Below are positions 1 through 62,524 of a stretch of DNA of 64,000 bases, one piece after another. Source of the stretch: Deltaproteobacteria bacterium (lineage in GTDB: Bacteria > SAR324 > NAC60-12); assembly GCA_038150265.1 (NCBI GenBank), contig JAYOTF010000007.1, positions 36,700-100,699 of the forward strand. The letters are read 5' to 3'. The notes beneath the pieces are model-generated. The model searched no databases, was not told the origin of the DNA, and worked only from the letters and a program-made list of their open reading frames with translations. A program made the position numbers and the translations under genes. How positions within the stretch are numbered: position 1 is the stretch's first letter; every line of letters starts with the position of its first letter.

Positions 1-283
1 CGTGTCCATGATCCTCGCCATGGGCATGCGGAAGCAACAGCCCGAGTGCGGCTTGTCCCCGGCGGAAGTACACCATCAGGTTGAAGCCCAGCAGGCCGCT
101 GATGAAGAGCATTCCCGCCAGAGCCAGCTTCGATTCAGCTGGCAGGAAGACCACCAGCACGAGGGGCAGGATTCCGCCAACGGGGTAGTCCCGCGAGTTT
201 TGGGAGCCAATCAGGAACATGGACAGGACGGCAAAGAACATTCCGGTGCCGATCCCCAGCAACAAAACGTAAGGAAACTCCAT
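1..283 (-). CDS. Hypothetical membrane protein, runs off the window edge; His-rich stretch after about 3 TM helices
   Basis: Manual translation from ATG at 283: MEFPYVLLLGIGTGMFFAVLSMFLIG...LLLPHAHGEDHGH; hydrophobic segments; not in the ORF track because it is truncated. Confidence 0.6.
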   Translation of the reverse strand, partial: MEFPYVLLLGIGTGMFFAVLSMFLIGSQNSRDYPVGGILPLVLVVFLPAESKLALAGMLFISGLLGFNLMVYFRRGQAALGLLLPHAHGEDHGH

Positions 284-366
284 GGGACGAATCTGGGTTC
301 AGGTTAACGAGTAGCCGGCAAGGCAAACGAGTGAGAGCATAGCACGCTTTTCCGGGAAGCAGAAGC

Positions 367-2340
367 TCAGAACGCTGAGGAGGCGGCCTCTTTCAGCAGG
401 GTGTCATAGGCTTGTGGTGTCAGGGCTTCCCAGCTTTCTGCAACCACCTGGAAGCGGCTCTCGGCACGGCGGAGGATCAGGGTCTTGATCCCGAGGTCAG
501 AGAGGCGTTCTGATTGATAATCCTGAAGGAGCCGGACCCGAATGTCTTCTCCCGAAAACTCGATCTGGAGTGGGGTCAGCTGAATCTGACGAGCGCCATT
601 TTGCTCGGCCACCCGTTGCTTCAGGTCGGCCCAGGCGGCCAGGTCGTATGACTCGCTCTGGAAGTCAGAGGCATACACCTGCAAGTAGGCCTGCAGGTTG
701 TCTCCTTCCCAGAGGTCTCGCCAGTGACTCACAAAGGCCAGGACGGACTGCAGGGGGTCGCCGGAAGTGATCACCGGGGCCGGTGTGGGCTCCGTCGTGG
801 CCACGGCGGGAGCAACCGGTGCTGCTGGTGCCAGGGCTGGAGCTTCCGGAGCCGTGACGTGGTTCACTTCCGGAGCTTCCGGAGCCGGGGTCGCTTCGCT
901 GGTGTCGAGCCAGGCGATGGCCTCCGGAGGGGTGCGGTCCTGATCAACAGCGGCAATGAGTTCCGTATTCGGGGCCGCCGGGTCGGCATCGGCTTCGGTG
1001 ACCCAGGCGACGGCCTCGGTTTCAGAGCCATCCAGGTCCACTGGGCGGGCCGCTGGGGGAACGGGTTCTGCGTCGGTTGCAACCAGCCAGGCTGCTCCGG
1101 TTGCTGAAGGCGCGTCCAGCTCCACGGGTTCCGGAGCGCTAATGAGGGTTTGGCGCAACTCGTCCAGCCCTTCCGGGTTTTGTAACGTCAGGGGCTCTTC
1201 GGCAGAAGTTTCCGGCTCTTCCGGAAGCGTGGGCTCTGAAGACGAGTTCGGCTCTTCCGGAAGGTTTGGCGAGAAGGACAAGGCGGCCAGAAGGGGGTCG
1301 TTTTCCGGAGTCGCCTTCACGATGCTGCCGGCGACCGGAGTGCCATTGAGGACAATGGGGAAGCTCTGCTGCTCCATTGCCAGGCGGTCGGAGGCGTTGA
1401 GCTTGCCCCACTGCTCGCTGATGATTTCATACCCCCGGGCTCCCTTGCGGAGGTACAGGGTTTTCAATCCGGAAGTCTGCAGGTGCGGGGCATCGTAGTC
1501 CTGGAAGAGTCGAACCTCCGTGACCTCTCCGGAGCGGAGGATGCTGAGAACCTGGATGCTGATGCGCTTTTCCCGGTAGAGGTCGTTGACGTTCTGCTTG
1601 TACTGCTTCCAGCGGGACGCGTTGAATTTTTGAGTCCGGAAGTCTGTGGCATAAAGCGACAGGTAGACCGGGTTGTCGCTGGTTTCCCAAGACGTGATCC
1701 AGGTTTGCAGAAACTCCAGAACCTGCTGGCGCTCCTGGAGCACCTTCCAGGGGCTTTCCAGCTGCAGCTTTTTGCTGATGATCATGGGCGTGTTGCGGAG
1801 CGACACCAGCTGCTTGACCTCAAGCAATTCGTCATTGCGGAGCGAGATGCACCCCCGGGTGGCCACGGGTTCCACCGATTCGGTGCCGTGCAGCCAGATC
1901 CCGGAACCCGTCTTGCGGTGATAGTAGCGGTCCAGGAAGTTCGGGTAGTTCGTCACCAGCGCTCCGGAGCCATAAACGGAGGCAATCTCCTCTCCATAGC
2001 GCTGGTCCAGCAGGGAGCTGCTCAGCTTCTGCCGGAAGCGGTAGATGCCCTCTGGCGTCTTCTGGTCTCCTTCGACCTGTTTGTCACCGTCAACCTTCCC
2101 AGACTCACACGAGTGGAGGGAGTTGAGGCGCCAGTGGCCGTTCAGTTGGTAGACGTAGAGGGTGCATCCGGATTTGTCCACCGCGATCACGGTGTCTCCC
2201 TCGACGCCATAGTAGAGGAGGCCTGCAGGGATTTTTTCAGCAGCCGCTACTGGAAGAGCCAGAAGTCCCCAGTATCCAGTGAGGAGCAATCCGAGAGCGA
2301 CCAGCAGGCGAGAAAGGGAGGTCGTCAGTGGGGGCGTCAC
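367..2340 (-). CDS. L,D-transpeptidase/carboxypeptidase (YkuD family) with two NTF2/SnoaL-like domains and a Pro/Ala/Glu-rich linker
   Basis: Motifs GDKQVEGDQKTPEGIY, GSGIWLHG, TRGCISL; N-terminal signal/TM; likely GTG start at 2340 overlapping the csoR stop (GTGA). Confidence 0.85.
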   Translation of the reverse strand: MTPPLTTSLSRLLVALGLLLTGYWGLLALPVAAAEKIPAGLLYYGVEGDTVIAVDKSGCTLYVYQLNGHWRLNSLHSCESGKVDGDKQVEGDQKTPEGIYRFRQKLSSSLLDQRYGEEIASVYGSGALVTNYPNFLDRYYHRKTGSGIWLHGTESVEPVATRGCISLRNDELLEVKQLVSLRNTPMIISKKLQLESPWKVLQERQQVLEFLQTWITSWETSDNPVYLSLYATDFRTQKFNASRWKQYKQNVNDLYREKRISIQVLSILRSGEVTEVRLFQDYDAPHLQTSGLKTLYLRKGARGYEIISEQWGKLNASDRLAMEQQSFPIVLNGTPVAGSIVKATPENDPLLAALSFSPNLPEEPNSSSEPTLPEEPETSAEEPLTLQNPEGLDELRQTLISAPEPVELDAPSATGAAWLVATDAEPVPPAARPVDLDGSETEAVAWVTEADADPAAPNTELIAAVDQDRTPPEAIAWLDTSEATPAPEAPEVNHVTAPEAPALAPAAPVAPAVATTEPTPAPVITSGDPLQSVLAFVSHWRDLWEGDNLQAYLQVYASDFQSESYDLAAWADLKQRVAEQNGARQIQLTPLQIEFSGEDIRVRLLQDYQSERLSDLGIKTLILRRAESRFQVVAESWEALTPQAYDTLLKEAASSAF

Positions 2341-2693
2341 GAGGCTTTGTCGAGAAGTTGAATGATTTCTTGGATCTTGGCTTCCGCGACTTCCGGCTGC
2401 GAGGAGCCGAGGGCGTCCCGGACGCAGTGGTTCAGGTGCGCCTGGAGGATGCCGAGCTCCACCTGGCGCAGGGCGCCGGAAGCGGCACGGATTTGAGCAA
2501 TGATGTCCATGCAGTAGCGGCGCTCCTCGACCATCTTCTGAATCCCCCGGAGCTGTCCCTCCACCCGACGGAGTCGGTTGAGCTGAGGGTGGTGGTCCGG
2601 GTGAGCCGAAGCGTCCAGGTCGTGACATCCGGGCACGTCGTTCCCGGACGGGGAAAGCGTGTCAGGGGCGGCATTCGCATTGCAGGTTGTCAC
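2337..2693 (-). CDS. csoR: CsoR/RcnR-family metal-sensing repressor
   Basis: LNRLRRVEGQLRGIQKMVEERRYCMDI...AHLNHCV, giving the Cys-His-Cys Cu(I) fingerprint. Confidence 0.85.
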   Translation of the reverse strand: MTTCNANAAPDTLSPSGNDVPGCHDLDASAHPDHHPQLNRLRRVEGQLRGIQKMVEERRYCMDIIAQIRAASGALRQVELGILQAHLNHCVRDALGSSQPEVAEAKIQEIIQLLDKAS

Positions 2694-2900
2694 AGGCTAC
2701 CGTTAGACTGGGTTCGGTTTCCACGAGTACAAAGGTCCTGGCTGCTGCCAAGGGTTCAGGGGTCCTGCAAGAAACGGGACATCTCGTGGCTAAAGAGCCA
2801 AGTATAAAGAGGGCATGCCACAGACACAACCTGAACTTGCAACGGACGGCTTCTGAAGCTGTTCCTTCTTGCGCAGACCTGACCTTCCAAACGCCTCATC

Positions 2901-4025
2901 ATGTTGGATTCACCTTCCTCAGATACCCCCCGTTCCGGAGACGTCGCCCTGGTGCTGGCGGCCCTCATGCTGGTTTCGTATGGCCTGATCATGATCTACA
3001 GCACCGGAGTGGCGGTGGCAGAGCGGACCTATGGTGACAGCTTCTACTTTGTCAAACGGCACCTGCTGAACCTGCTGGTGGCCGGGTTGGCGTTTTATGT
3101 GGGCTACCGTATTGACTACCGCCGCTGGCGGGCCTGGATCCCCTGGATGATGGTGGGCATGCTGCTGCTGCTGCTGGCGGTGATGGTGACGCATTACGGG
3201 GCATCCGTGAAGGGCGGGCGGCGCTGGCTGCGTGTGGCGGGATTCGGGTTTCAGCCGGCAGAGTTCCTCAAGGTGGTGCTGGTGTTCTACGTGGCCTCTT
3301 ACCTGGAACGCAAGCAGGCCCTGCTGGGCTCGTTCACCAAGGGCCTGATTCCGACCTTCCTCATTACGGGGCTTTATCTCTTTCTGGTGCTGCTGCAGCC
3401 CGACTTCGGAACCGTGGTGCTGGTAGCGATGACGGTGCTGGTGATGCTCTTCTTGGGAGGGGGGCGCCTGACCCACATCACGGCCAGCATCCTCAGCGTG
3501 GGCATGGTCGGAGGCCTGCTCGTTGCCTCCGAGGAGTACCGCATGAAGCGGGTGCTTGCGTTTCTGGACCCGTGGAGCGACCCATGGAATTCCGGATACC
3601 AGATCATCCAGGCGTTCATTGCCATCGGCAGCGGTGGCTGGACGGGCCGGGGGCTGGGCATGAGCCGGCAGAAGCTGTTCTTCCTTCCGGAGGCGCATAC
3701 CGACTTCATCTTTGCGATTGTGGGAGAAGAGCTCGGCTTCATTGGGGTCCTGCTGCTGCTGGCGCTGTTTACCGTGTTCCTCTGGCGTGGGTTCTGGGTG
3801 GCCTGGAACGTTCAGGATACCTTTGCGCGCCACGTGGCCTCGGGCTTTACCACCTTGATCAGCCTGCAGGTCCTGTTTAACCTGTGTGTGGTCACCGGCC
3901 TCATGCCCACCAAAGGCATTTCTCTGCCCTTCATCAGCTACGGAGGGTCCTCGTTGATGACCACCATGCTGATCACCGGCATCCTCGTGAACATCAGTCG
4001 TAATGTTTCGGCACAACGTGGCTGA
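2901..4025 (+). CDS. ftsW: SEDS-family peptidoglycan glycosyltransferase FtsW
   Basis: GGRRWL, FQPAEFLK, QPDFGT, LPEAHTDFIFAIVGEELG, KGISLPFISYGGSS. Confidence 0.92.
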   Translation: MLDSPSSDTPRSGDVALVLAALMLVSYGLIMIYSTGVAVAERTYGDSFYFVKRHLLNLLVAGLAFYVGYRIDYRRWRAWIPWMMVGMLLLLLAVMVTHYGASVKGGRRWLRVAGFGFQPAEFLKVVLVFYVASYLERKQALLGSFTKGLIPTFLITGLYLFLVLLQPDFGTVVLVAMTVLVMLFLGGGRLTHITASILSVGMVGGLLVASEEYRMKRVLAFLDPWSDPWNSGYQIIQAFIAIGSGGWTGRGLGMSRQKLFFLPEAHTDFIFAIVGEELGFIGVLLLLALFTVFLWRGFWVAWNVQDTFARHVASGFTTLISLQVLFNLCVVTGLMPTKGISLPFISYGGSSLMTTMLITGILVNISRNVSAQRG

Positions 4026-7000
4026 ACGCCTCCTGCTTGGCCTCCTTTTGGGAGGCTTCCTCTACCTGACGCTTCCTCCGATCCCTGCTTTTGCGCAAAC
4101 GGGCTCCGAGCCTGAACTGGAAGACCCCGAACCGCCTTCAGATGCCGAAGAGGTGGGCGCAGAAGAGGCGCCTTCCGGTCGCATTGACCACCGTCTGAAG
4201 AACTTCCTCGAGACCACTCAGGGGCTGGATGACTGGAACCGCATCATGCTGGCCATCCTGGAAAGTCCGGAAGCGGTCGAAGAGGTCCTCAACCAGGGAA
4301 TGCGGGTCAACGTCCGCGGGCATGGACAGTTCCGGGGGTCAACGCCCCTGATCTTTGCGGCCAAGACCGGAAAGCTGGAGATTGTGCGGTTGCTGGTGGA
4401 ACGCAGGGCCCGGATCAACGACACCGATGACAACGGGATGACAGCCCTGGCGCATGCGGCTCAGGAGGGAGAGCTGGAGATTGTGCGGTTCCTGCTGAAG
4501 CGTGGCGCCAACCCGGATACCATTTCAGACAACCATTGGACGCCTCTGATTTTGGCGACCCGACGTGGGCACGATGGCGTCGTCCGGATCCTGCTGAGTG
4601 TGGGGGTCCGGGTGGATTATGCCGATCACCTGGGCCTGACGGCCCTGGCGTATGCAGCGCAGGAAGGAGAGCTGACCATTGCCGAGATGCTGCTGGAGTA
4701 TGGTGCCGATCCGCGGGTTGCCTCTCGGAACGAATCGACCCCGCTGCTTTGGGCTGTGAAGAGCGATCAGCTGTCACTGGTCGCTGAGCTTCACCGCAGT
4801 GGCGGTTCCATTCGGGTGCGAGAGAAGGAATTTGGCCGGACGCCGCTGCACCTGGCAGCGCTCAATGGCAGCACGTCCATGGCGCGTTTCCTCCTGCGCC
4901 TGGGAGCCCGGATTGATGCCGTTGACTTCCAGGGCCGCACGCCCCTGATCACGGCCCTCCTCTCGCAGAGTGAAGAGACCGCCGTTGCGCTCATTCAGGA
5001 GGGCGCTTCCCTTGAATTGCCCGATGAGCAGGGCAACACGGCGCTGATCCTGGCGGCGCAGAACGGCATGCTGGAGACCGTGCAGGAACTCCTCAACCGT
5101 CCAGTTGATCTCGACATCCAAAATGAGCTGGGGCAGACCCCGTTGATGCTGGCGGCTGCCTCCGGAAGGCTGGAAGTGGTGGAGCTGTTGCTGCGTCGAA
5201 GTGCCGACCTGAGTCGGACGGACCGTTACGGCAAGACCGCCTGGATGTATGCCGCAGATTATGAGCAGGATGAGGTGGTCCGGTTCCTGGACCAGAACGG
5301 GGGGGCCACTTCGGGCAATCTGATTTATGCCGCCACCCGAGGGTACGTGCCGATCCTTCAGGACCTGCTGGAACGTGAAGTGCCCCTAACGGCTCAGGAT
5401 GAACTGGGGTGGACGGCGCTGATGTGGGCCGCCAACAATGGAAACCTCGAGAGCCTCAAGCTGCTGCTGGAACACAACACCCCCGTCAACGACCAGGGCG
5501 CCAACGGCTGGACCGCGCTGATGCTGGCAGCCGGGCGCGGACACGCGGAGGCCATTGAACTGCTGGTCCAGAATGGTGCCGACTTCACGATTCGGGATCA
5601 GGACGAGTGGACGGCGCTGACATGGGCGGCACACAAGGGCCAGACGCTTTCGGTCAAAAAGCTCATCAGCCTCGGTGCTCAGGTCAATGAGCAGGGCGCC
5701 AATGGCGTGACCCCCTTGGCCTGGGCGGCGGCTTCCGGAAACACCGAGACCGTGCTGGCCCTGCTTGAGCTGGAGGCCGACCTGCACCTCGCAGATGCGT
5801 ATGGCAGAAGCCCTCTGACGCTGGCTCTGCTGAAGGAACACTATGATACGGCGGGAACCCTGATTCGCCTGGGGGCCAATGCCAACGCCAGCCTCCTCTA
5901 TGCCTCCAGCCGCGGGTACGTTGGGATTGTGCAGTTTCTGCTGGAGCATCAGGCGAGCCTCCAGCACCGCTCGGAAGAAGGCATGACGCCCCTGTTGCTG
6001 GCCAGCATGGGCGGACACGAGGCGGTGATTCAACTGCTGCTGCAACAGGGAGCCGACCCCCTCTTCCGGGACCCGCGAAACCGCACGGCTCTGCACTATG
6101 CGATCATTGCCGACTCGTTGCCCAGCAGCGAGCTGCTTCTGCGTTCCGGAGACCTGGTCAACCTGAAGGATGCCGACGGCAACACGGCGCTGATGCTGGC
6201 GGCTGATCAGGGGTACCGTGATCTGGTGGAGCTGCTCCTGCGTTACGGAGCACGCCTGAACGAGGTCAATGGCGGACAGCAAACAGCGCTGATGCTGGCG
6301 GCGGCCAAGGGCTATCGCGAGATCTGCCGCCTGCTCATCCAGTCAGGCGCCAATCCGGAGCTGCAAACCGAGTCGGAGCAAAATGCGCTCATGGTGGCTG
6401 CCCAAAATGGACACCGCCTGGTGGTGGAGTTGCTGCTGGAACAGGGGGTGCCCGTGGATACCAAGATGTTCCAGTTGCAGGGACGGGGTGGAACGGCCCT
6501 GACCCTTGCGGCTCGGAGCGGGCATTCCGATGTGGTGCAGGTGCTGCTCAACTACGGGGCCAAGCTGGGCGCGATTGAGCTCATGTACCGCCGCAATGCC
6601 CTCATGGAGGCTGCCCGAAGCGGTTACCTGGGAACCGTGAAGGTGCTGCTGCTCGCAGGCGCCGTCGCTTCGGAAACGGACCTGTCGGGGAAAACCGCCC
6701 TCATGCTGGCGGCCGAGGCCGGGCATACGCCTGTTGTTCAGTACCTGCTCGATCAGGCACCTGATTCCGCTTTTGAGGTCGATGACGAGGGAAAGTCGGC
6801 GTTGCACCTGGCCGCCGAAATGGGACAGGCCGAGGTGGTGCGCTTGCTGCTCGACCAGGGCTTTGATCCGGACCAGAGGGATCAACAGGGCGAGACGCCC
6901 CTGCACCTGGCGGCTGAAGCGGAAAGCGTGTTGGTGCTCAAGCTGCTGCTGGAAGCCGGGGCGGATCCGCAACTGAAGGACCGCTCGGGAAGAAGCCCCC

Positions 7001-7047
7001 GGGACTGGGTCAGCACGAATCCGGAGCTGGCGTCGCTGTTTGAGTGA
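4003..7047 (+). CDS. Exported ankyrin-repeat protein (about 27 repeats)
   Basis: Signal-like N-terminus ending PAFA-QT; continuous 33-aa G-TPL/TAL-AA-G-V-LL-GA repeats. Confidence 0.92.
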   Translation: MFRHNVAERLLLGLLLGGFLYLTLPPIPAFAQTGSEPELEDPEPPSDAEEVGAEEAPSGRIDHRLKNFLETTQGLDDWNRIMLAILESPEAVEEVLNQGMRVNVRGHGQFRGSTPLIFAAKTGKLEIVRLLVERRARINDTDDNGMTALAHAAQEGELEIVRFLLKRGANPDTISDNHWTPLILATRRGHDGVVRILLSVGVRVDYADHLGLTALAYAAQEGELTIAEMLLEYGADPRVASRNESTPLLWAVKSDQLSLVAELHRSGGSIRVREKEFGRTPLHLAALNGSTSMARFLLRLGARIDAVDFQGRTPLITALLSQSEETAVALIQEGASLELPDEQGNTALILAAQNGMLETVQELLNRPVDLDIQNELGQTPLMLAAASGRLEVVELLLRRSADLSRTDRYGKTAWMYAADYEQDEVVRFLDQNGGATSGNLIYAATRGYVPILQDLLEREVPLTAQDELGWTALMWAANNGNLESLKLLLEHNTPVNDQGANGWTALMLAAGRGHAEAIELLVQNGADFTIRDQDEWTALTWAAHKGQTLSVKKLISLGAQVNEQGANGVTPLAWAAASGNTETVLALLELEADLHLADAYGRSPLTLALLKEHYDTAGTLIRLGANANASLLYASSRGYVGIVQFLLEHQASLQHRSEEGMTPLLLASMGGHEAVIQLLLQQGADPLFRDPRNRTALHYAIIADSLPSSELLLRSGDLVNLKDADGNTALMLAADQGYRDLVELLLRYGARLNEVNGGQQTALMLAAAKGYREICRLLIQSGANPELQTESEQNALMVAAQNGHRLVVELLLEQGVPVDTKMFQLQGRGGTALTLAARSGHSDVVQVLLNYGAKLGAIELMYRRNALMEAARSGYLGTVKVLLLAGAVASETDLSGKTALMLAAEAGHTPVVQYLLDQAPDSAFEVDDEGKSALHLAAEMGQAEVVRLLLDQGFDPDQRDQQGETPLHLAAEAESVLVLKLLLEAGADPQLKDRSGRSPRDWVSTNPELASLFE

Positions 7048-7050
7048 CGG

Positions 7051-7296
7051 TCAGCTCCCCTTGTTCCACCAGGCGATCACGAGCTGCTGCTCCCGCTCCC
7101 GAAACCCTGCCTCATCAATCTTTCCCTGCCTGAACCCCTCCCGGAGGTAGTGGAGCTTGGCCAGCCACTCTTCGGTGCTGCTGCACTGGCTCCACCCTCC
7201 TTCCGTTTGACGGACCAGTTGCTCATAGGCCTCTGTGTCCAGGTCGATGGGGTGGTCCAGAGCGTGAGGGGTGACCCGGATGGTCGACATGGCCAC
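7051..7296 (-). CDS. Small hypothetical protein
   Basis: 81-aa ORF 5 bp downstream of tal on the same strand, protein-like composition. Confidence 0.65.
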   Translation of the reverse strand: MAMSTIRVTPHALDHPIDLDTEAYEQLVRQTEGGWSQCSSTEEWLAKLHYLREGFRQGKIDEAGFREREQQLVIAWWNKGS

Positions 7297-7301
7297 CGAC
7301 C

Positions 7302-7964
7302 TCAGTCAGCCTGACCGAGGGTCTGACCAGTCTGCTCCCAGTCCTTCAGGAAGGCGGCCAGGCCCTTGTCGGTGAGGGGGTGGTGGAACATCTGCTGAAA
7401 GACCTTTGGTGGCGCTGTGATGACATCGGCGCCCATCTTGGCACAGTGGAGGGCGTGTTGTGGACCCCGGATGGAGGCGGCCAGGACCTCAGTCTCAAAG
7501 CCATAGTTGTTGTAGATTTCAACAATGTCGGCGATCAGATCGAGCCCGTCCAGGCTGATGTCGTCCAGACGTCCCACAAACGGACTGATGAAGGTGGCGC
7601 CGGCCTTGGCCGCAATCAGGGCCTGGTTGGCGCTGAAGCACAGGGTCACATTGACTGGGTGCCCCTCTTTGCTGAGCTGGTTGCAGGCCTGAATGCCTTC
7701 CGGTGTCAGGGGAACCTTCACCACAATGTTGTCGGCAATCTGCCGGAGCCAGCGTCCCTCGCGGATCATGCTCTCGGCATCAGTGGAGACCGTTTCTCCG
7801 GAGATGGGGCCATCCACGAGCTTGCAGATCTCGGCCAGCACTTCACGGATGTCTCGTCCGGACTGCGCAATGAGGCTGGGGTTGGTGGTGACGCCATCAA
7901 CAATGCCGTAGGCGGTGAGGGCTTGAATCTGTTCCGTATCGGCAGTATCAACAAAAAATTTCAT
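7302..7964 (-). CDS. tal: Transaldolase / fructose-6-phosphate aldolase (short type)
   Basis: [42 protein letters not shown]. Confidence 0.93.
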
Positions 7965-8195
7965 GGAAGGGACTTTCGTTGAGAAGGTTGGACCGTGACT
8001 GGAGGTGCGGGAGCGCCACAGAGGTATTCAACAGGTTGAAAGCCCCTGAGTTTAGCGAACCTCTTGCGGGAGTGCAATCGGGCAACTGGAAAAACCCACT
8101 CAATTTTTTGGGATGTCTTGACCGGGGCCTGTCCCCCCTTTACCGAGGCCAGGGCGCTGAGTTCCGACGCCTCTTTCTTTCTGATGGAGACTTGT

Positions 8196-8624
8196 ATGAC
8201 GACGGCTTCTTCCAAAGCCCTTGAGGTGGCACAGACCATGTTTGCTGACGACCGGACCTCCCAGTTTCTGGGCATGGAACTGATTGAGGTGACGCCAGGA
8301 GCAGCAACGCTGCGCCTGCCACTGGCGGAGTGGATGTTCAACGGACATGGCACCTGCCACGGCGGGATCATCTTTACGTTTGCTGACTCCGCCTTCGCCT
8401 TTGCGTGCAACTCGCACAACCAGCGGACCGTTGCGCAGCACTGCACCATTACCTTCCTGAAGCCGGGGAAGCCTGGAGACATTCTGATTGCAGACGCCCG
8501 AGAAGTCGCTCGTGAGGGACGAAATGGGATCTATGACATTGAGATCCGGACGGAAGCCGGAGAGGTGCTGGCGCAGTTCCGGGGAAACTCGCGCAGCATC
8601 TCCGGGACCATTTTGCCGGAGTGA
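8196..8624 (+). CDS. paaI: Hydroxyphenylacetyl-CoA thioesterase PaaI
   Basis: NGHGTCHGGIIFTFADSAFAFACNS; GGAGA RBS before ATG 8196. Confidence 0.88.
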   Translation: MTTASSKALEVAQTMFADDRTSQFLGMELIEVTPGAATLRLPLAEWMFNGHGTCHGGIIFTFADSAFAFACNSHNQRTVAQHCTITFLKPGKPGDILIADAREVAREGRNGIYDIEIRTEAGEVLAQFRGNSRSISGTILPE

Positions 8625-8625
8625 C

Positions 8626-9078
8626 TCAGGAGGCGTCTGTTGGCTGAGGCGCGTCCAGAAGCTTGTACACCATCTTGGTAAACAGCGCGCGCTCCTCCGG
8701 ATCCAGACGCTCAAGAAACTGCGCTTCGTATTCCAGCGCCAGGGGTTTGATGTCCTCAAAAAGTGCCCGTCCGGAATCCGTGAGTCGCATCTCGACCAAG
8801 CGGCGGTCGTTGGTGCTGGGACGTTTTTCCATCAGACCTCGTGCCTCCAGACGTGCAGAGGCTCGGCTAATCTTGGCCTTGTCCATGTCCACATGCTGGA
8901 AGACCTCCCGGACCGAGATGCGGTCGGATTCGGCCAGGTGGGCCATCAGCCGCCACTCTGGAATGGACAGGTCAAACTGGGCCTCATAGACCTGGGCCAG
9001 GTTCCGGCTCACCTGATGGGCCAGAACGTTGAGGAGGTAGGGGAGGTAGTGGTCGAGTTGAAGGGCTGAGTGGCTCAT
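8626..9078 (-). CDS. MarR-family transcriptional regulator
   Basis: YLPYLL..., EWRLM, DKAKISRA, DRRLVEMRLTDSG. Confidence 0.9.
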   Translation of the reverse strand: MSHSALQLDHYLPYLLNVLAHQVSRNLAQVYEAQFDLSIPEWRLMAHLAESDRISVREVFQHVDMDKAKISRASARLEARGLMEKRPSTNDRRLVEMRLTDSGRALFEDIKPLALEYEAQFLERLDPEERALFTKMVYKLLDAPQPTDAS

Positions 9079-9222
9079 TGGAATGCATGAGGTTAAGGGC
9101 CGAGGGCATCAGCTCTCTTGAAGTTCCTTCCGACAGGAAGGAGCTGCTGATCATTGGGCATTCCTCATTTTCCGAAATTGCGAGCGAAGAAGCAACCATT
9201 CTCCAGAAGGGTTCCGGAGAAC

Positions 9223-9238
9223 TGGCACGCTTCTTTCA
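9223..9238 (+). promoter_or_regulatory. Possible sigma54 promoter (perfect -24, degenerate -12)
   Basis: TGGCACGCTTCTTTCA about 37 bp upstream of ATG 9275; TTTC replaces TTGC. Confidence 0.3.
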
Positions 9239-9274
9239 CACCAGAAGGGATCAACCCGAACCCGCGGAATCATC

Positions 9275-9863: not shown

Positions 9864-11096
<1,233 letters not shown>

Positions 11097-11117
11097 GCTT
11101 CTCCGGAGGATCGCGCA

Positions 11118-52731: not shown

Positions 52732-53580
52732 ATGCACACGACTTATATTCCCGCTGAAGAAGTCGCTTCAAAACTGGATCACCCCGACTGGGTTTTGCTG
52801 GACTGCCGGTTCTCGCTGGATGCTCCCGACCTGAAGGAGCAGGACTATCAGCAGTCGCACCTTCCGGGCGCTCGGTACGTTCACCTGGAACGCGACCTGT
52901 CTGGCGAGATTCAGGTGGGAAAAACGGGGCGGCATCCGCTCCCGACCTTTGAGGACCTGGTGGTGCGGCTGGGAAGCTGGGGCATTGGTCCGGGCGTGCA
53001 GGTGGTGGCGTATGATGACGCAAACGGCGCCTATGCCGCGCGCCTGTGGTGGATCCTCCGGTGGCTTGGGCACGATGCTGTCGCGGTGATGGATGGCGGC
53101 TGGAACGCCTGGACTGCCGCGGGCCTGCCTGTTTCGGAGGCGCTGCCCACCAAGGAGCCCCGGGAGTTTCAGCTCAACCCTCGGCACACGTGGCTGCTCA
53201 ATGCCCATGAGGTCGATGCCCTCCGTGAGCGTCCGGACGTGGTCCTGATTGACGCCCGTTCCGGTGATCGATTCCGGGGGGAAAATGAACCGATTGATTC
53301 CGTGGCCGGCCACATTCCGGGAGCGAACTCCCTGCCGTGTTCGGAAAATTTGGGCCCCGATGGGCTCGTGAAAACTCCGGAGGCCCTGTGTGAACGCTTT
53401 GAAGCCGTGCTGAACGGGCGCCCCCCCGAGCGCCTCATCAGCTACTGCGGCTCCGGTGTCACGGCCTGCCTGAACCTGCTGGCGCTCAAGCATGCCGGTC
53501 TTGGAGACGGACGCCTGTACGGAGGCTCCTGGAGCGACTGGATCACGGATCCGGACCGCCCCATTGCCACAGGGGCCTGA
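52732..53580 (+). CDS. sseA: Tandem-rhodanese sulfurtransferase (SseA-like)
   Basis: GRHPLP, AARLWW, GHIPGA, YCGSGVTAC, YGGSWSDW. Confidence 0.88.
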   Translation: MHTTYIPAEEVASKLDHPDWVLLDCRFSLDAPDLKEQDYQQSHLPGARYVHLERDLSGEIQVGKTGRHPLPTFEDLVVRLGSWGIGPGVQVVAYDDANGAYAARLWWILRWLGHDAVAVMDGGWNAWTAAGLPVSEALPTKEPREFQLNPRHTWLLNAHEVDALRERPDVVLIDARSGDRFRGENEPIDSVAGHIPGANSLPCSENLGPDGLVKTPEALCERFEAVLNGRPPERLISYCGSGVTACLNLLALKHAGLGDGRLYGGSWSDWITDPDRPIATGA

Positions 53581-53594
53581 CCCCGCCTGAGGAC

Positions 53595-54281
53595 ATGACC
53601 CCACTCCGCAAGCAACCCTGGTTCCGGGCGCTGAAGCTCCGCCTGGGAGCCGGCCTCTTCACGCAGCTTTTGCGTGTGACGGGCAAGACGGCTCGTGTTC
53701 GGCGTGAGAACGAACACGCGCTTCAGGCTGCCTTGGCGCAGCACGGGACCTTCCTGCTCGCCACCTGGCACGAGAACATCTACTTCAGCACCTGGATGCT
53801 CCGGGACCTCGGCCTGACTGCGCTCATCAGCAGCTCCCGGGATGGCGCCGCCATCTATGCGGTCATGCAGCACTTCAACTTCAAGGCGGTCCGGGGGTCG
53901 TCCACCCGAGGCGGAATGCTGGCCCTGCGGGAGCTGCTGGAGGCCCTGAAGCGTCAAGAGCCGGTTGCCATCACCCCTGATGGTCCTACCGGACCCCTGC
54001 ATCAGGTGCAGCCCGGGATTTTACTGCTGGCAAAAAAGACGGGGCTGCCGATTCTTCCCTGGCACTATGAAGTCCGGGATGCGTGGCACCTGAACAGCTG
54101 GGATGCGCATAAGGTTCCCAAACCGTTTACCTCTGGTGTCGGTCGGTTTGGAGAGGCGTTTTACGTGGAGGCTCAGACTTCAAGCGCTGACCTGGAGCAG
54201 GTGGCGCGGAAGCTGGAAGACGTGATGCAGGCGAACGTGGAAGCCGTGCGGCGGTTGGTGGGGGCATCCGGGGCCACGTGA
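53595..54281 (+). CDS. DUF374 / lysophospholipid acyltransferase family protein
   Basis: WH, LISSSRDG, VRGSSTRGG, ITPDGPTGP, SWD...PKPF. Confidence 0.85.
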   Translation: MTPLRKQPWFRALKLRLGAGLFTQLLRVTGKTARVRRENEHALQAALAQHGTFLLATWHENIYFSTWMLRDLGLTALISSSRDGAAIYAVMQHFNFKAVRGSSTRGGMLALRELLEALKRQEPVAITPDGPTGPLHQVQPGILLLAKKTGLPILPWHYEVRDAWHLNSWDAHKVPKPFTSGVGRFGEAFYVEAQTSSADLEQVARKLEDVMQANVEAVRRLVGASGAT

Positions 54282-54300
54282 CGCGACCCCGGGGACCGGC

Positions 54301-55248
54301 TCAAAGCTGGTCGTTGTAGGCCTTGATGGCCTGACTCTTCATCTCTTCAAGGTAGAGCCGGGAGTAGATCTCAATCAGGAAGGGACGCAGGTCGTTGACA
54401 TCCTCATCGTCAGAGTACTCCTGAAAGAACTGCTCATACACATCCAGCGCCCCCACGAGCACCCCGTAATCGGTGAGCAGGTTGGCGTACAGGAATCCGG
54501 AAGAGTCCATGGACTGAGCCTTCTCAGACTGGGTCTTCAGGTCGGTCAGGCGCTTCGAGGTCAGGCGCTTCAGGTGCGAGTCCCGGGTGGTGTAGACGAC
54601 TTCAGAGCCCTCGAGGACCTCAATGAAGTAGCGGACGTTGTCCTTGGGGGGCTCAAGGGTTGCCCGAACCAGGGACGCCTCAGTGGCCGGGATCTCGTAG
54701 GTCCCGATCTCGTCCCACTGCTTGGTCTTGCGGTTCTTGTCGCCCACGTGGAGCCGGTAGCTGTACTGAGGTCCCACGTTTTCCCAGACGACATCCGGGA
54801 AGTCACTGGTGACCACGACGTTGCCAGCCTTGAGCTGAATGCCGGGCTTCTTCGCCGAGCGCCGGACGGTCGTGTACTTCTGGGTCTTGATGAACTTGTC
54901 ACCAAGTCCAGCGACGAGGTCGCCTGCAGACTCCTGGTTGCCGAGTTGTCCGGAGAGGGCCTGGATGCCGTCGGCAGAAACCTGCGCCACGGTGCCCGCG
55001 GGAACCCGGGTGGTCTGGTTGGTGGACTGGTTGATGAAGGTCACGGAGCTGTCGGGCTCCGTCCGGACCTGATAGGAGTCATACATGAAGACGTTCCGGC
55101 GGACCTTCTTCCACCGCTTCCCGTCCTTGCTGTACTCCACCTTTCCCTGAGGCTCGGTCAGCATGCCAATGGGGGTCCTGGCCCAAAGATTGCCTGCTGA
55201 TATCAGCAGCAGGAGGACAACGACGAGCAACGTTTTTCCAGTACGCAT
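54301..55248 (-). CDS. Secreted protein with a FecR-like N-terminal beta region
   Basis: Signal peptide, GKVEYSKDGKRWKKV...VRTEPDS; helical C-terminus. Confidence 0.6.
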   Translation of the reverse strand: MRTGKTLLVVVLLLLISAGNLWARTPIGMLTEPQGKVEYSKDGKRWKKVRRNVFMYDSYQVRTEPDSSVTFINQSTNQTTRVPAGTVAQVSADGIQALSGQLGNQESAGDLVAGLGDKFIKTQKYTTVRRSAKKPGIQLKAGNVVVTSDFPDVVWENVGPQYSYRLHVGDKNRKTKQWDEIGTYEIPATEASLVRATLEPPKDNVRYFIEVLEGSEVVYTTRDSHLKRLTSKRLTDLKTQSEKAQSMDSSGFLYANLLTDYGVLVGALDVYEQFFQEYSDDEDVNDLRPFLIEIYSRLYLEEMKSQAIKAYNDQL

Positions 55249-55393
55249 GTAACCTTTACGGATAAGGGGTGACGGCATTCAACAAAATAGTCGCCTTTTT
55301 TATCTTATTTTGAAAAAAGAGGCAAACCCGATCCCTTCAGAAACCGGTAAGGATTTCAAGGGCGGGTTTCGCTGGATCGGGTGTGACAAAAAA

Positions 55394-55855
55394 ATGAAGC
55401 GATTGCTGATTGCGCTGGTGAGCAGCTGGGTACTCTCGATGGGAGCGGGCCCTGCCGTGGGGGCTGATACAACGGTGTACGAAAGCCTGAAGCAGGACCT
55501 GGTTGGGCTGGACTACCTGCTCCGGAATGTGGAGTTTACCGAGATTCAATGTGACCTGGGGGCTTGCGAGCTGGTGACCGCCGATCAGTCGTATCAGGTG
55601 AACCTGCGGCGTGCGAGTCCGGTGGAGTACAAGCGAGAGCGCCTGCTGTATGTCCTCAAGCTGAGGGTCCGGTCTCCGTTGATCACGTCGAGTTTGCAGG
55701 TGGATTACATTCAGGATCCGCCGAGCATCATTGTGGGACGCAACGGTTGGAGCGAGCCGATCCCGCCTTATGAAAAGACGATGTTTGGCATGGTGGGACG
55801 CTGGGTGCCGCTGTTGCAGACCTGGCTCCGCCGAGAGGGCCTGAGCATCGATTGA
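55394..55855 (+). CDS. Hypothetical secreted protein
   Basis: MKRLLIAL signal peptide; fills the gap, divergent from the previous gene. Confidence 0.65.
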   Translation: MKRLLIALVSSWVLSMGAGPAVGADTTVYESLKQDLVGLDYLLRNVEFTEIQCDLGACELVTADQSYQVNLRRASPVEYKRERLLYVLKLRVRSPLITSSLQVDYIQDPPSIIVGRNGWSEPIPPYEKTMFGMVGRWVPLLQTWLRREGLSID

Positions 55856-56076
55856 GGGGCGACAGGAGCCGTGTGGACTCGCGGAAGGCTGACTGGCAAC
55901 AAGCCCGGAAGGTCAGGAAGCTGAAGTGAGGGCTCATCCTGGTTGGGGCGGTGGAACTGCAGGGTTCCGGAACCGCCAACCGCTCTAACTGAAAGGGCTC
56001 TCCGTGGAGGGGAAGGGCGGCAGCCCGGAGAAAAACCACCGCCCTGGGAGGGACATTGCGTCCCCAAGGAGAGCGT

Positions 56077-57324
56077 TTAGACGGTTGCGGAGTTTTGGTA
56101 GGAGAAGCCGCCCGGCATCTTCACGAACTCCGGATAGGAGTGCATGCCGAATTCCTTCTCGTCAATGCCTTCGAGTTCCTCTTCTTCAGACACCCGCAGT
56201 CCCATCGTTGCCTTGATGATGCTCCAGACCACGAGGCTGGCAGCAAAGGTGAAGATGCCCACCACAACCACACCGAGCAGCTGGGTGCCGAAGGAGGCAT
56301 CCGGATTGAAGATCCCCACCGCCAGGGTGCCCCAGATTCCGTTGGCAAGGTGAACCGAGAGGGCTCCGACCGGATCGTCAATCTTGAGCTTGTCAAAGAA
56401 CGGAACGGCGAAGATCACCAGCACGCCACCAATGGCGCCAATCAACGCGGCGACTCCCGGAGTGGGGTAGTCGGGACCTGCCGTAATGGCGACGAGTCCG
56501 GAGAGGGCTCCGTTGAGGACCATGGTCAGGTCGATCTTCTTGTACATCACCTGAGTCAGGATCAGAGCAACGATGGCTCCGGCACAGGCGGCCATGTTGG
56601 TGTTGACCATGACTGCGGAGATGGCGTCGGCATCTGCCTTGCTGCCAAGAGCCAGCTGAGAACCGCCGTTGAAGCCAAACCAGCCAAACCAGAGGATGAA
56701 GGTGCCCAGGGTGGCCAGCGGGAGGTTGGAAGCCGGAATCGGCACCACCCGTCCTTGTGCATCATACTTGCCCATTCGTGGCCCCAGCAGCAGGGCACCC
56801 GCGAGCGCGGCCCAGCCACCGACGGAGTGAACGATGGTCGATCCGGCAAAGTCGGAGAAGCCGTCAATCAGGCCACCCAGTGCGGTGCCCCCCCAGGTCC
56901 AGTGCCCCTGAATCGGGTAGATGATGGCGGTCAGGACGAGTGTGAAGATCATGAACGGCCAGTACTTGATGCGCTCGGCCACGGTTCCGGACACGATGGA
57001 CGCAGCAGTCGCAACGAACACAACCTGGAAGAAGAAGTCGGACATCAGGCTGTGTCCGTCGGAGGAGGTGCCCGAGAGGGCAAATCCGAAGCCCATGAAG
57101 CTGTTGCCGTCGGCGTACATGAGGTTGTAGCCCACCACGTAGTAGGCGAGACACGCCAACGCATAGAGGGTGATGTTCTTGGTCAGGATCGCGGTGACGC
57201 TCTTGCTCCGGACCATTCCGGCTTCAAGCATCGCAAAGCCTGCGGCCATCCACATCACCAGCGCGCCGCTGATCAGAAGCCAGATCGTATCCAGCACGTA
57301 TTTCATCTCTGCTGAGAATTCCAT
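56077..57324 (-). CDS. amtB: Ammonium transporter
   Basis: GFAMLEAG, DFAGSTIVH, WFGWFGFNGGS, DDPVGALSVH (twin His retained). Confidence 0.96.
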   Translation of the reverse strand: MEFSAEMKYVLDTIWLLISGALVMWMAAGFAMLEAGMVRSKSVTAILTKNITLYALACLAYYVVGYNLMYADGNSFMGFGFALSGTSSDGHSLMSDFFFQVVFVATAASIVSGTVAERIKYWPFMIFTLVLTAIIYPIQGHWTWGGTALGGLIDGFSDFAGSTIVHSVGGWAALAGALLLGPRMGKYDAQGRVVPIPASNLPLATLGTFILWFGWFGFNGGSQLALGSKADADAISAVMVNTNMAACAGAIVALILTQVMYKKIDLTMVLNGALSGLVAITAGPDYPTPGVAALIGAIGGVLVIFAVPFFDKLKIDDPVGALSVHLANGIWGTLAVGIFNPDASFGTQLLGVVVVGIFTFAASLVVWSIIKATMGLRVSEEEELEGIDEKEFGMHSYPEFVKMPGGFSYQNSATV

Positions 57325-57389
57325 TTAGGTTCTCCGATTGAGGGATTGTTCAACAGAAGCCGAAGCCTCTTGGTCTACCCTCCCCCTTC

Positions 57390-57405
57390 AGCAGAGAGTG
57401 TGCCT
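57390..57405 (-). promoter_or_regulatory. Sigma54 promoter of amtB
   Basis: Minus strand AGGCACACTCTCTGCT, GG-N10-GC. Confidence 0.6.
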
Positions 57406-57466
57406 TCTGGAAATATTTTTTTATGTATCTGATTTTATTAAATTTAATTTTAAGATGACAAATTAA

Positions 57467-57483
57467 TGCCAATATTTTGTGCA
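57467..57483. promoter_or_regulatory. NtrC-like enhancer site
   Basis: TGCACAAAATATTGGCA (minus strand) versus consensus TGCAC-N7-GTGCA; separated from the sigma54 site by an AT-rich IHF-like tract. Confidence 0.55.
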
Positions 57484-57863
57484 TGCGTTTTAGTCGATTT
57501 TTAGGCGAGTTGCTCTTTTTTTAGACTGCACCCCTGGCTGAGAGGGGGCCTCCGGAGGGCCTTGCTGAGCAGCGACCCGGGCCTGCCTGTAGAGGCGACC
57601 TCGCCGGCCACCGGAGCTCTTCAGGTTGAGGTTCACCGTGAGCCCGCAGGCGCCCGTGGTGCTGATCAGAGGATCGAGATGAAGGGGACCCTTTCCTTAT
57701 TGCAGAGGAGGCAGAACTCCGGACGGAGAGCGGCCACGTGCTTCCGGCCGGAGGTTCTTCCGGGTGATCTCAGGGAACCGCTCCGGCGCAGGGCTTCTCG
57801 TGGCGGGGCTTCCATTTTTTCGCATTGAAAAACCCGAGAGATACAGTACTCTACACAAGTTGA

Positions 57864-60149
<2,286 letters not shown>

Positions 60150-60306
60150 GCCACGAGTTAGGGGGGAATCTTGATTCAACGTGCCCGGAGACACCGAACT
60201 TTCCGGGTGCCTTATGACTGCTTCACCAGCCTGCCGCAAGGCAGAGACAGGTCATCACCTGAGCGAAAGCAGGCGTAACTGAAAACCTCAAAGGAAACAG
60301 AGGAAA

Positions 60307-61290
60307 ATGAGAAACGTGAAAGTTGCAGTAACCGGCGCTGCCGGACAAATCGGTTACGCCATGCTCTTCCGCATTGCGTCCGGAGCCGTGTTTGGTCCCA
60401 ATACCACGGTGGACCTCCAGCTTCTGGAGCTGGACGCGGCACTTCCGGCCCTGGAAGGGGTGAAGATGGAACTGGACGACTGCGCCTTCCCGCTTCTGAA
60501 CAAGGTGGTGACGACGTCGGATGCCAAGGTTGCTTTCAAGGATACGGACTGGGTTCTGCTGGTGGGAGCTGCACCGCGCAAAGCCGGCATGGAGCGCAAC
60601 GACCTGCTCCGCATCAACGGCGGCATCTTCGTGGGTCAGGGCCAGGCGATCAACGAGAGCGCAGGTGACGACGTCCGCATCCTGGTGGTGGGCAACCCCT
60701 GCAACACCAACTGCCTCATTGCCATGAACAACGCTCCTCGCATTCCGCGGGACCGCTGGTTTGCCATGACGGCGCTTGATGAAAACCGGGCCAAGACTCA
60801 GCTGGCTCAAAAAGCCGGTGTGGCCGTGAAAGACGTCACCAACATGACGATCTGGGGCAACCACAGCGCGACTCAGTACCCGGACTTCTTCAACGCAAAG
60901 ATCAATGGCACAGCGGCTCCGGAGGTGATCAGCGACCACGAGTGGCTCAAGGGGGACTTCATCTCCACCGTGCAGCAGCGTGGGGCCGCAATCATCAAGG
61001 CCCGGGGGGCTTCTTCGGCAGCTTCGGCAGCCAATGCCGCTCTGGACACGGTGATGCGCATGGAAAACCCAACGGCCGCTGGCGACTGGTTCAGCACCGG
61101 TGTTCCGAGTGATGGCAGCTACGGCATTCCGGAAGGCCTGATCTTCAGCTACCCGCTCGTCAGCAAAGGCGGAAGCGACTGGGAGATCGTCAAGGATGTG
61201 CCAGTCAACGAATTTGGTCAGGAGAAGATCAATGCGACCCAAGCCGAGTTGGAAGGGGAGCGTGACGCCGTCAAAGACATGTTGGGGTAG
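60307..61290 (+). CDS. mdh: Malate dehydrogenase
   Basis: [34 protein letters not shown]. Confidence 0.96.
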
Positions 61291-61293
61291 TTC

Positions 61294-62469
61294 ATGAAAA
61301 TTCACGAATATCAAGCAAAGCAGGTTCTGGCCAAGTACGGGGTGACCATCCCGCGTGGACAGGTGGCGCGTACGCCGGAAGAAGCCGTGGCCGCTGCTCA
61401 GGAATTGGGCACCGAAGTCTGTGTGGTGAAAGCGCAGATTCACGCGGGTGGCCGTGGCAAGGGCGGCGGAGTGAAGGTCTCGAAGGGACTGGATGCCGTC
61501 CGGGAGAATGCTGAACAGATCATTGGCATGCAGCTGGTGACGCATCAGACTGGCCCGGCTGGCCAAAACGTCAAGCAGGTCCTCATCGAAGAGGGCATGG
61601 ACATTGTCAAGGAACTCTACTGCTCTGTGCTCGTGGACCGCGGGCAGCAGCGGGTGGTCATTCTGGCTTCCACAGAAGGCGGCATGGACATTGAGGAAGT
61701 GGCGGCAAAGACCCCGGAGAAGATCCTCAAGGTGTTTGTCGATCCCACCATCGGCCTGCGTCCGTTCCAGACCATGGAACTGGCGTACGGGCTGGAAATT
61801 GACAAGATCAACCCGAAGCTGGTTCGTCCGGCGGCGGCCCTCTTTCAGTCGCTCTATGACGCGTTTGTGGCAGAGGACTGCTCCCTGGTGGAAATCAACC
61901 CCCTTGTGCTGACAGGGGACGGACGAGTGATTGCGCTGGACGCCAAGGTGACGTTTGACGACAATGCGCTTTTCCGGCACAAAGCCACTGAAGCGCTGCG
62001 CGATCCGGATGAGGAAGATCCACTGGAAATTGAAGCTGCCGCGTCGAACCTCAACTACATCAAGCTTGATGGCACCATCGGCTGCATGGTCAATGGCGCC
62101 GGACTGGCAATGGGCACGATGGACATCATCAAGGCCTACGGAGGAGAGCCGGCCAACTTCCTGGATGTCGGTGGAACGGCAACGCAGGAAACCGTTGAGA
62201 AGGCCTTCAAGATCATCACGAGCGATGCGAACGTCAAGTGCATCCTCATCAACATCTTCGGAGGCATTGTCCGCTGCGACATGGTGGCCGCTGGGGTCAT
62301 CGCAGCGATCAAGAACGTCAACCTGCAGATTCCGGTTGTTGTTCGTCTGGAAGGCACCAACGCCGAGGAAGCTCACGCGCTGGTGGCAGAATCTGGACTG
62401 GGGGACAAGCTGCAGATGGCGGATGGCCTCAAAGATGCAGCACAGAAAGCAGTGGCTGCGGTTGCCTAA
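61294..62469 (+). CDS. sucC: Succinyl-CoA ligase beta subunit
   Basis: [40 protein letters not shown]. Confidence 0.95.
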
Positions 62470-62498
62470 GCCTTAGGCGTCGCATTCACCCTGCATCT

Positions 62499-62524
62499 CC
62501 TGCTCCGGAACCTTCTGGAGCAGG
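62499..62524 (+). terminator. Stem-loop after sucC
   Basis: CCTGCTCCGGA-ACCT-TCTGGAGCAGG followed by the pyrimidine run TCCTTCCTTT. Confidence 0.55.

Follow-up and report, generated by a model that had tools for sequence, protein, structure and literature searches.

TCCGGA in the SAR324 phylum: a highly iterated palindrome with helical phasing whose sign differs between genera

Introduction

What keeps a six-base palindrome at thousands of copies per chromosome, within genes and between them? The question is raised by TCCGGA in a stretch of 64,000 nucleotides (G000:C7:36700-100699, here called the window) from G000, a draft bacterial genome of 3.39 Mb in 87 contigs with 61.3% GC and 97.8% completeness. 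The window is ordinary housekeeping chromosome, with Pfam matches to FtsW/RodA, MutS, SelB, FliG, IDH, MDH and SucC among others, and 183 copies of TCCGGA lie within it (1..64000). Its MutS protein is 60-66% identical to the MutS of metagenome-assembled genomes labelled SAR324 cluster, Deltaproteobacteria or Pseudomonadota. A first-pass annotation, made from the letters of the window alone, described TCCGGA as a frame-independent genome signature of the kind represented by HIP1, the highly iterated palindrome (HIP) of cyanobacteria. The description is borne out by the enrichment of all three codon phases and of intergenic DNA. The enrichment is real, strong, and lineage-wide, and the spacing of the copies follows the turn of the double helix.

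Enrichment of TCCGGA in the window and the genome

The 183 sites of the window (2.9 per kb) compare with 23.0 +/- 4.6 expected from 100 dinucleotide-preserving shuffles, the largest count among which is 34 (0/100 reach 183). The whole of G000 contains 9,711 copies, one per 349 bp or 2,861 per Mb, and TCCGGA is the commonest hexamer of the genome, followed by CCGGAG with 5,456 copies. The observed-to-expected ratio (O/E) is 8.67, 7.57, 3.95, 2.39, and 1.22 under Markov models of order 0 to 4, respectively; at order 0, the next-highest of the 64 palindromic hexamers stands at 3.15. The order-4 model absorbs the signal by construction, because A follows 53% of all TCCGG; it predicts 7,958 copies and leaves an excess of z = 19.6. 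The first-pass annotation had counted 14 sites at 1-3000 and 11 at 17941-20880 by eye, both of which are exact, and its expectation of about one site per 3 kb agrees with the order-0 ratio and the 9,711 sites in 3.39 Mb.

The bases outside the hexamer carry at most 0.08 bit, with a mild preference for T at -1 and A at +1 that brings TTCCGGAA to 27x. Since the flanks are uninformative, TCCGGA stands alone and is not part of something longer; a longer repeat or composite motif is further ruled out by close pairs (6-10 bp) that have no fixed spacer. Coverage is even along the genome, with a mean of 14.5 and a variance of 16.5 sites per 5-kb bin, which is near-Poisson, and islands free of the word are rejected as no bin among the 619 holds fewer than 3 sites. 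The density is slightly higher with GC and dips to 1.2-2.0 per kb at -60 to +20 of start codons. As a separate observation on G000, palindromes that contain CTAG are nearly absent (O/E 0.03 for CCTAGG and ACTAGT, 0.06 for TCTAGA and GCTAGC), and CATATG is also at 0.03.

Independence from coding and imprint on the proteome

Codon usage, codon-pair bias, or amino-acid composition could give rise to the word as a by-product. Its constituent codons are common (TCC is 32% of Ser, GGA 25% of Gly, CCG 44% of Pro, and CGG 37% of Arg), and a dicodon-preserving shuffle keeps 6,719 of the 8,754 coding sites. The genes of G000 used here are 2,697 calls based on open reading frames (ORFs) and a codon log-odds score (88% coding). 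Coding copies fall into all three codon phases, with 2,063 in TCC-GGA, 2,458 in xTC-CGG-Axx, and 4,233 in xxT-CCG-GAx. Within-gene synonymous shuffling gives 2,115 copies, so that each phase exceeds its shuffles (O/E 3.8, 3.3, and 5.1), and codon permutation gives 1,292 (O/E 6.8). The dicodon-preserving shuffle, in which the first phase is fixed by construction, leaves an O/E of 1.32 and 1.52 in the other two phases (sd ~27, z > 20). Intergenic DNA (399 kb) harbors 906 copies, at an O/E of 7.49, and TCCGGA is the commonest hexamer there as well.

The first-pass annotation had singled out a dicodon-preserving shuffle, a fourth-order Markov model, and confinement to one frame as the places where the signature might dissolve. 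An excess survives both models (z > 20 and z = 19.6), and all three phases are enriched. By the same ORF-based calls, the window alone divides into 42, 40, and 84 sites in the three phases, in the above order, and 17 intergenic sites. The claim that sites occur in different phases thus stands for the window; the eight examples listed at 845-1304, however, all lie in one gene and in one phase, xxT-CCG-GAx, which corresponds to Pro-Glu/Asp codons.

Comparison with relatives separates the word from the proteins that carry it. In G000, TCCGGA occupies 8,751 of the 21,422 positions that the encoded protein permits (40.9%). Occupancy is 31% in G002, 34% in G001, 32% in G013, and 25% in G018, all of which are enriched, and the last figure is reached at only 43% GC. 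In contrast, non-enriched family members with the same proteins show 2-5% (4.9% in G010 and 2.2% in G014, the latter from only 103 kb in short contigs). Low occupancy in these relatives, intergenic enrichment, and the enrichment of all phases therefore make codon and dipeptide usage look like a consequence of the word and not its cause. The shuffles, the intergenic copies, and the occupancy of relatives refute the by-product explanation, to which we assign practically no chance.

The consequence extends to the proteome. Pro-Glu is the most over-represented dipeptide of G000 (O/E 1.64), and Ser-Gly and Pro-Asp reach 1.41 and 1.36, while the reversed dipeptides Glu-Pro and Gly-Ser stand at 0.82 and 1.04. 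In five enriched genomes, the O/E of Pro-Glu is 1.53-1.72 (rank 1-8 of 400 dipeptides), compared with 1.09-1.17 (rank 64-92) in two non-enriched ones. Pro-Glu and Ser-Gly are inflated because TCCGGA occupies permitted positions, and a pressure for a word at the level of DNA measurably alters protein sequences.

Helical phasing of the copies in G000

The spacing analysis covers short range (<= 400 bp) in this draft of 87 contigs. The pair-distance spectrum of TCCGGA in G000 peaks at 10.5 bp with a normalised power of 55, against a background with a median of 0.8 and a 95th percentile of 3.7 and a maximum of 8.9 in 200 phase-preserving re-placements. Twelve other hexamers have a 10.5-bp power of at most 10, and the top scorers among them overlap TCCGGA. 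The signal fades over ~300 bp. Its phase, -19 +/- 5 degrees (Z = 67), denotes a preference for copies that share one helix face.

At the shortest distances, pairs spaced 9-10 bp apart are favored, and the zone of 11-17 bp holds hardly any. How often a permitted position is occupied varies accordingly with the distance to another copy: 0.07-0.21 at 11-17 bp, 0.42 when the distance is 9 bp, and 0.57 and 0.62 at 41-42 and 63 bp, respectively. The effect is therefore one on synonymous choice and not a periodicity of alpha-helices or proteins. Among the roles that the first-pass annotation had offered for the word, chromosome organisation gains support from this phasing.

Two structural explanations are rejected. 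A general bendability code would be expressed in the base composition around the sites, and profiles of WW, SS, and AA/TT show no helical signal there (amplitude ~0.002 at 10-11 bp). Two neighboring copies form an inverted repeat, and avoidance of hairpins could empty the 11-17 bp zone. It is not the sole cause, because 9-10 bp spacings, which leave loops of 3-4 nt, are not depleted and the periodicity reaches ~300 bp.

Distribution across SAR324 and clade-specific phase

TCCGGA was counted against its reversed control word, AGGCCT, in 88 genomes of the SAR324 phylum. It is enriched in 3/3 genomes of genus g1 (3.9-5.9x), in 3/3 of g12 (14-30x), and in most of the 18 genomes of g11 (1.6-32x), and also in g4, g6, g3, and several genera of another family (2.4-8x). 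It is neutral in g2 (9 genomes), g5, g8, and g9. Other genomes avoid the word, with counts of TCCGGA to AGGCCT of 15/1,435 in G087, 25/1,728 in G084, 31/1,584 in G083, and 133/987 in G023. Strong avoidance is seen in these four and in G086, G081, G085, G021, G026, G067, and G068, a pattern which suggests that restriction specific to TCCGGA may be common in the phylum. Sites in g11 vary in density between 0.16 and 2.1 per kb, and the genomes at the bottom of this range are 51-59% complete.

The arrangement of the copies differs among enriched genera. Spectra of relatives were computed on partial DNA (400 kb of G018, 711 kb of G013, and 480 kb of G001). G018, of g11, has Z = 29.7 at 10.5 bp and a phase of -10 +/- 7 degrees (jitter-null maximum 9.3); its spacings peak at 20-21, 30-31, 41-42, and 51-52 bp with almost nothing between. 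G013, of g12, has Z = 11 at 10.5 bp and 13.7 at 10.3 bp (jitter-null maximum 9.2), with a phase of 178 +/- 13 degrees, peaks at 26-28, 36-39, 47-49, and 56-60 bp, and troughs at 30-33 and 40-43 bp. G000 and G013 favor spacings of 9-10 bp, which G018 does not, and all three have few pairs at 11-17 bp.

Pair counts from whole genomes extend the contrast to the genera; G041, G049, G050, and G053 and genera g2, g5, g7, g8, and g9, which have very few pairs, were left out. Pairs at 40-43 bp outnumber those at 34-37 bp by 604 to 263 in g11 (14 genomes, 13 leaning so), or 2.15x and 0.94x the random expectation. In g12, the respective counts are 23 and 141 (3/3 genomes), or 0.16x and 0.99x. Thus, same-face pairs about four turns apart are favored in one genus and nearly forbidden in the other. 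G000 (149 versus 76) and G002 (79 versus 64) have more pairs at 40-43 bp. The helical phase of TCCGGA is clade-specific, which is newly established in this analysis. Opposite phases of one and the same word argue for a protein geometry that varies by lineage rather than an intrinsic effect of DNA shape.

Methyltransferases and other candidate genes

Highly iterated palindromes have been linked to DNA methylation. According to Elhai (2015, PMC4390886), alternate cyanobacterial HIPs, including rCCGGy with its CCGG core, come with cognate methyltransferases, and a model of methyl-directed repair is proposed. An orphan N4-cytosine or N6-adenine methyltransferase could similarly mark TCCGGA for strand discrimination in mismatch repair or for control of replication, as Dam-GATC does with SeqA and MutH, and selection for enough marks would raise the density. 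G000 does encode two candidates of the N4/N6 type, C45 and C51, both of which carry SPPY motifs. Profile searches of this genome detect no C5-methyltransferase (PF00145), no Vsr (PF03852), no N6_Mtase of type I/IIG (PF02384), and neither MutH nor SeqA. Searches turned up no full-length C5-methyltransferase in g1, g12, or most of g11, and presence of this enzyme does not correlate with the trait.

The presence of neither candidate co-varies with enrichment. C45 (258 aa, PF01555 at 81 bits) adjoins a retron-type reverse transcriptase and recurs among relatives only in G001 (71% identity), not in the equally enriched G002. C51 is a divergent match to PF01555 (37 bits) that is vertically inherited in 25 of 30 relatives. 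These include the non-enriched G003, G014, and G010 and the avoider G023, whereas no copy was found in the enriched G018; enriched and non-enriched genomes share a conserved core of the enzyme. The one-mismatch neighbors of the word (nine pairs) have an O/E of 0.51-2.96 with no pattern of depletion, TCTGGA/TCCAGA being at 2.57, and CCGGA half-sites are mildly enriched (1.4-2.3). We therefore regard a methylation-coupled origin as unlikely, although it would overlap with the explanation preferred below if a reader protein recognised methylated sites. The first-pass annotation had offered methyltransferase-coupled repair as one role, which has no support from the genes found. Of the genes that it proposed to look for, Vsr was not found, and methyltransferases are present as the two N4/N6 candidates that do not track the enrichment.

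Both loci have features of their own. At L001 (G000:C45:1404-5096; ORFs 35-1444, 1441-2217, and 2224-3159), the first gene encodes a reverse transcriptase of the retron St85 type (NCBIfam, 200 bits) and is followed with overlapping stop and start by the small N4/N6 methyltransferase and then by a 311-aa ORF of no known family; the set looks like a mobile defense-type cassette. In G002, C51 (L085, G002:C16) has an N-terminal extension of ~330 aa with repeats rich in Arg, Asp, Glu, and Pro, EDRPRREDRPRY-like. The G000 copy (L002/L084) is cut by a contig end, and that of the non-enriched G003 is without the extension.

A self-recognition signal for DNA uptake or recombination is a further candidate role, modelled on the DNA uptake sequences (DUS) and uptake signal sequences (USS) of other bacteria. 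Like them, TCCGGA occurs in all frames at a high and even density with a clade-specific presence. G000 harbors ComEC and DprA, and the window (24215-25972) encodes an MshEN-domain ATPase of type II/IV secretion. Two works reportedly link HIP1 to transformation or transfer (10.1101/2024.09.10.611283, PMC13756078). Helical phasing and its reversal between genera would be unexpected for such a signal, and discrimination by a 6-bp palindrome is no more than ~9-fold. The uptake sequences known from other bacteria exceed this length and are non-palindromic. Moreover, competence genes are near-universal, as ComEC and DprA occur in 10-11 of 14 control genomes. The uptake signal, also offered by the first-pass annotation, gains no support from these genes, and we consider it very unlikely.

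TCCGGA-rich phages

A scan of IMG/VR for close TTCCGGAA pairs yielded 80 loci for examination, in which only an excess beyond the selecting pair counts. Contigs L302 (33 TCCGGA in 6.9 kb), L260 (30 in 8.0 kb), and L294 (19 in 6.2 kb), at 3-4.8 sites per kb, are fragments of tailed phages that encode a tape measure protein, portal, and large terminase. Together with L275, L250, and L295, which share the same site spacings and represent one phage family, such fragments span 2-4.8 sites per kb and an O/E of 11-23. No similarity was seen between the phage proteins and the SAR324 DNA with which they were compared. One locus was set aside: in L236:93-6914, on a 249-kb IMG/VR contig, a 2,274-aa ORF has TCCGGA at multiples of 9/18 bp, which reflects a coding tandem repeat and not a genome-wide signal.

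Turnover of sites between relatives

The window has a collinear counterpart in G002 with 82% nucleotide identity. From G000 to G002, 74 of 181 TCCGGA sites (41%) are also sites in the relative, compared with 30% for control hexamers. In the reverse direction, over 180 kb, the figure is 218 of 392 (55.6%), compared with 31.4% for hexamers with four G/C, and TCCGGA ranks 32 of 953 hexamer types. G001 is ~72% identical to the window, of which only 14 kb aligned. The word is thus conserved above control hexamers, as HIP1 is by the standard of Xu et al. (2018, PMC5861425), and near the baseline of a re-draw. The first-pass annotation had proposed to look for conservation in relatives; it is present relative to controls, but it lies close to what independent re-drawing would give. 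The pressure looks like one on the density and arrangement of TCCGGA and not on individual positions.

High turnover at constant density is also what a non-adaptive drive would produce, in which biased mismatch repair or gene conversion turns near-cognate hexamers into functionless TCCGGA in whatever DNA is replicated in these cells. The even, near-Poisson coverage with no site-free islands and the graded intensity across clades, including the range within g11, fit such a drive, as do the tailed-phage contigs at 3-4.8 sites per kb. A context-free bias, however, cannot give 10.5-bp phasing, the exclusion at 11-17 bp, or the opposite phases of g11 and g12. The one-mismatch neighbors are not depleted, and no Vsr-like gene is found. 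We consider a drive of this kind quite unlikely.

A proposed helix-face-sensitive reader of TCCGGA

The reading that fits best, to which we give nearly an even chance, is that a dimeric reader sensitive to helix face recognises TCCGGA and that weak genome-wide selection keeps the word dense. We infer both the existence of a reading protein and the maintenance of the word by selection instead of a repair drive. In this view, TCCGGA would be recognised by a DNA-binding factor that acts over the whole chromosome and is most likely a symmetric dimer. Selection on each site would be weak, yet effective in very large populations, and would keep the word dense wherever the sequence permits, partly at the expense of protein sequence. 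Bound factors would interact or interfere according to helix face and so constrain the arrangement of neighboring copies.

Several points weigh against a face-sensitive reader under selection. No SeqA (PF03925), MutH (PF02976), or histone-fold match is present in G000, although the E. coli SeqA/MutH control was found, and no extra ParB/Noc paralog accompanies the trait, ParB_N having mostly 1 match per genome (0 to 3), enriched or not. The phase is split even within one genus: G001 leans opposite to G000 (42 versus 79 pairs, p = 0.001), and the presumed geometry would therefore have to change fast; the spectrum of G001 is not significant at 10.5 bp (480 kb). Conservation is only modestly above independent re-drawing at 31-41% occupancy, and sites with in-phase neighbors are not better conserved (28/49 versus 22/44 between G002 and G000). 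A near-Poisson density with weak positional conservation also fits the non-adaptive drive. Finally, the gene calls are ORF-based, relatives do not count as independent samples, and their genome sizes are rounded values.

A more far-reaching version of the face-sensitive reader would be a system that coats and self-marks the chromosome. A reader on ~10,000 sites would attract or exclude its neighbors by helix face depending on the genus, four in ten permitted positions would have been rewritten and the dipeptides of the proteome shifted, phages of the host would copy the mark, and other SAR324 lineages would restrict the word. We regard this version as possible but doubtful.

Other features of the window

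A dense run of 13 copies, at 845..2172, lies inside a single gene (367-2628, minus strand) with YkuD and Cds6_C domains. Two intergenic copies at 20103..20127, between genes 19299-20021 and 20136-20549, are 19 bp apart, about two helical turns; 18-20 bp is a favored spacing genome-wide in G000. A further intergenic copy (62504..62509) precedes a tRNA gene (62537-62609) that begins 28 bp downstream, and the site scan finds a close pair 10 bp, or one helical turn, apart at 43053..43068. The MutS gene (32532..35486, minus strand) encodes MutS domains I-V, indicating that mismatch repair is present in G000, and contains 13 copies (32605 to 35448). The first-pass annotation had listed four sites as intergenic; those at 20103, 20122, and 62504 are so, but 35448 is inside the longest MutS ORF, and its status hinges on the true start. 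The longest site-free stretch, 2,378 bp between site starts (11876..14247), covers lower-GC ORFs (11987-12604 and 12644-14170) without a Pfam match.

Three other genes of the window deserve mention. Ankyrin repeats (Ank_2, E = 1e-186) make up nearly all of a 1,014-aa protein (4003-7047, plus strand), an unusual feature in a free-living bacterium. The protein encoded at 54301-55278 (minus strand) has the immunoglobulin-like and C-terminal domains of MtxA (magnetotaxis) in addition to DUF7354. A selenocysteine-specific elongation factor, SelB, is encoded at 25986-27908 (plus strand), and the organism probably uses selenocysteine.

Comparison with known systems

The role of highly iterated palindromes has been a question for ~30 years, with nearly all work on one word in one phylum. 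TCCGGA of SAR324 is an independent case in another phylum with a physical read-out, the face of the helix. Natural contrasts make the question amenable to comparison, as the phylum comprises enriched, neutral, and avoiding clades, sister genera of opposite phase, and in g11 a natural gradient of density that lends itself to a search for the gene responsible. How densely the word occurs could also serve to link phages to hosts or to bin sequences of SAR324, an abundant uncultured group of the ocean. A search of the literature, with most subscription journals outside its reach, found no report on TCCGGA over-representation or on word bias in SAR324.

The closest likeness is to HIP1 (GCGATCGC) and the alternate HIPs, such as rCCGGy of Oscillatoria PCC 10802, which are likewise GC-rich palindromes at thousands of copies per Mb. 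As with HIP1, copies of TCCGGA are independent of reading frame, lie both inside and outside genes, and are better conserved than control palindromes, and whole clades either have the word or do not. Unlike HIP1, it is a 6-mer and not an 8-mer and belongs to another phylum. Its phasing is helical, at 10.5 bp and with a clade-specific phase, in contrast with the kb-scale periodicity of HIP1, which reportedly lies at 10-90 kb. It also differs from the HIPs in that no C5-methyltransferase was found by profile search in G000 and that neither N4/N6 candidate, whose specificity is not readable from sequence, co-varies with the trait. Its one-mismatch variants show no bias towards a methylated core, in contrast with the HIP class. 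GC-rich palindromes of that class are the top outliers among words of their length and, according to Elhai (2015, PMC4390886), number some 500-2,500 per Mb or more; TCCGGA, at 2,861 per Mb, agrees with this. For HIP1, Xu et al. (2018, PMC5861425) report conservation above controls and analyse periodicity by binned spacings on the kb scale, and 'helical' occurs 0 times in that paper.

Other systems share single features. GATC is not known to be several-fold over-represented in E. coli. SeqA prefers pairs of GATC that share a helix face (PMC2691817). G000 has a same-face preference too, at a phase of -19 +/- 5 degrees, and g12 reverses it; the likeness to Dam-GATC with SeqA and MutH ends with the homologues of these two proteins, which were not found in G000. 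Very-short-patch repair by Dcm and Vsr differs in that G000 has no match to PF00145 or PF03852 and that the deamination product TCTGGA/TCCAGA is not depleted (O/E 2.57). The DUS of Neisseriaceae and the USS of Pasteurellaceae are non-palindromic words of 9-12 nt with lineage-specific 'dialects', and they are not known to show helical phasing. They resemble TCCGGA in that all frames contain them, at roughly one or more copies per kb, and in being spread over the core genome, and differ from it as TCCGGA is a 6-bp palindrome with uninformative flanks.

TCCGGA, which we take to be the recognition site of BspEI, Kpn2I, and AccIII, finally invites comparison with the avoidance of restriction sites. 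Other SAR324 genomes purge the word, whereas the clade of G000 reverses the pattern with an 8.7-fold enrichment. TCCGGA of SAR324 is a case of the highly iterated palindrome type with a helical phasing whose sign differs between genera.

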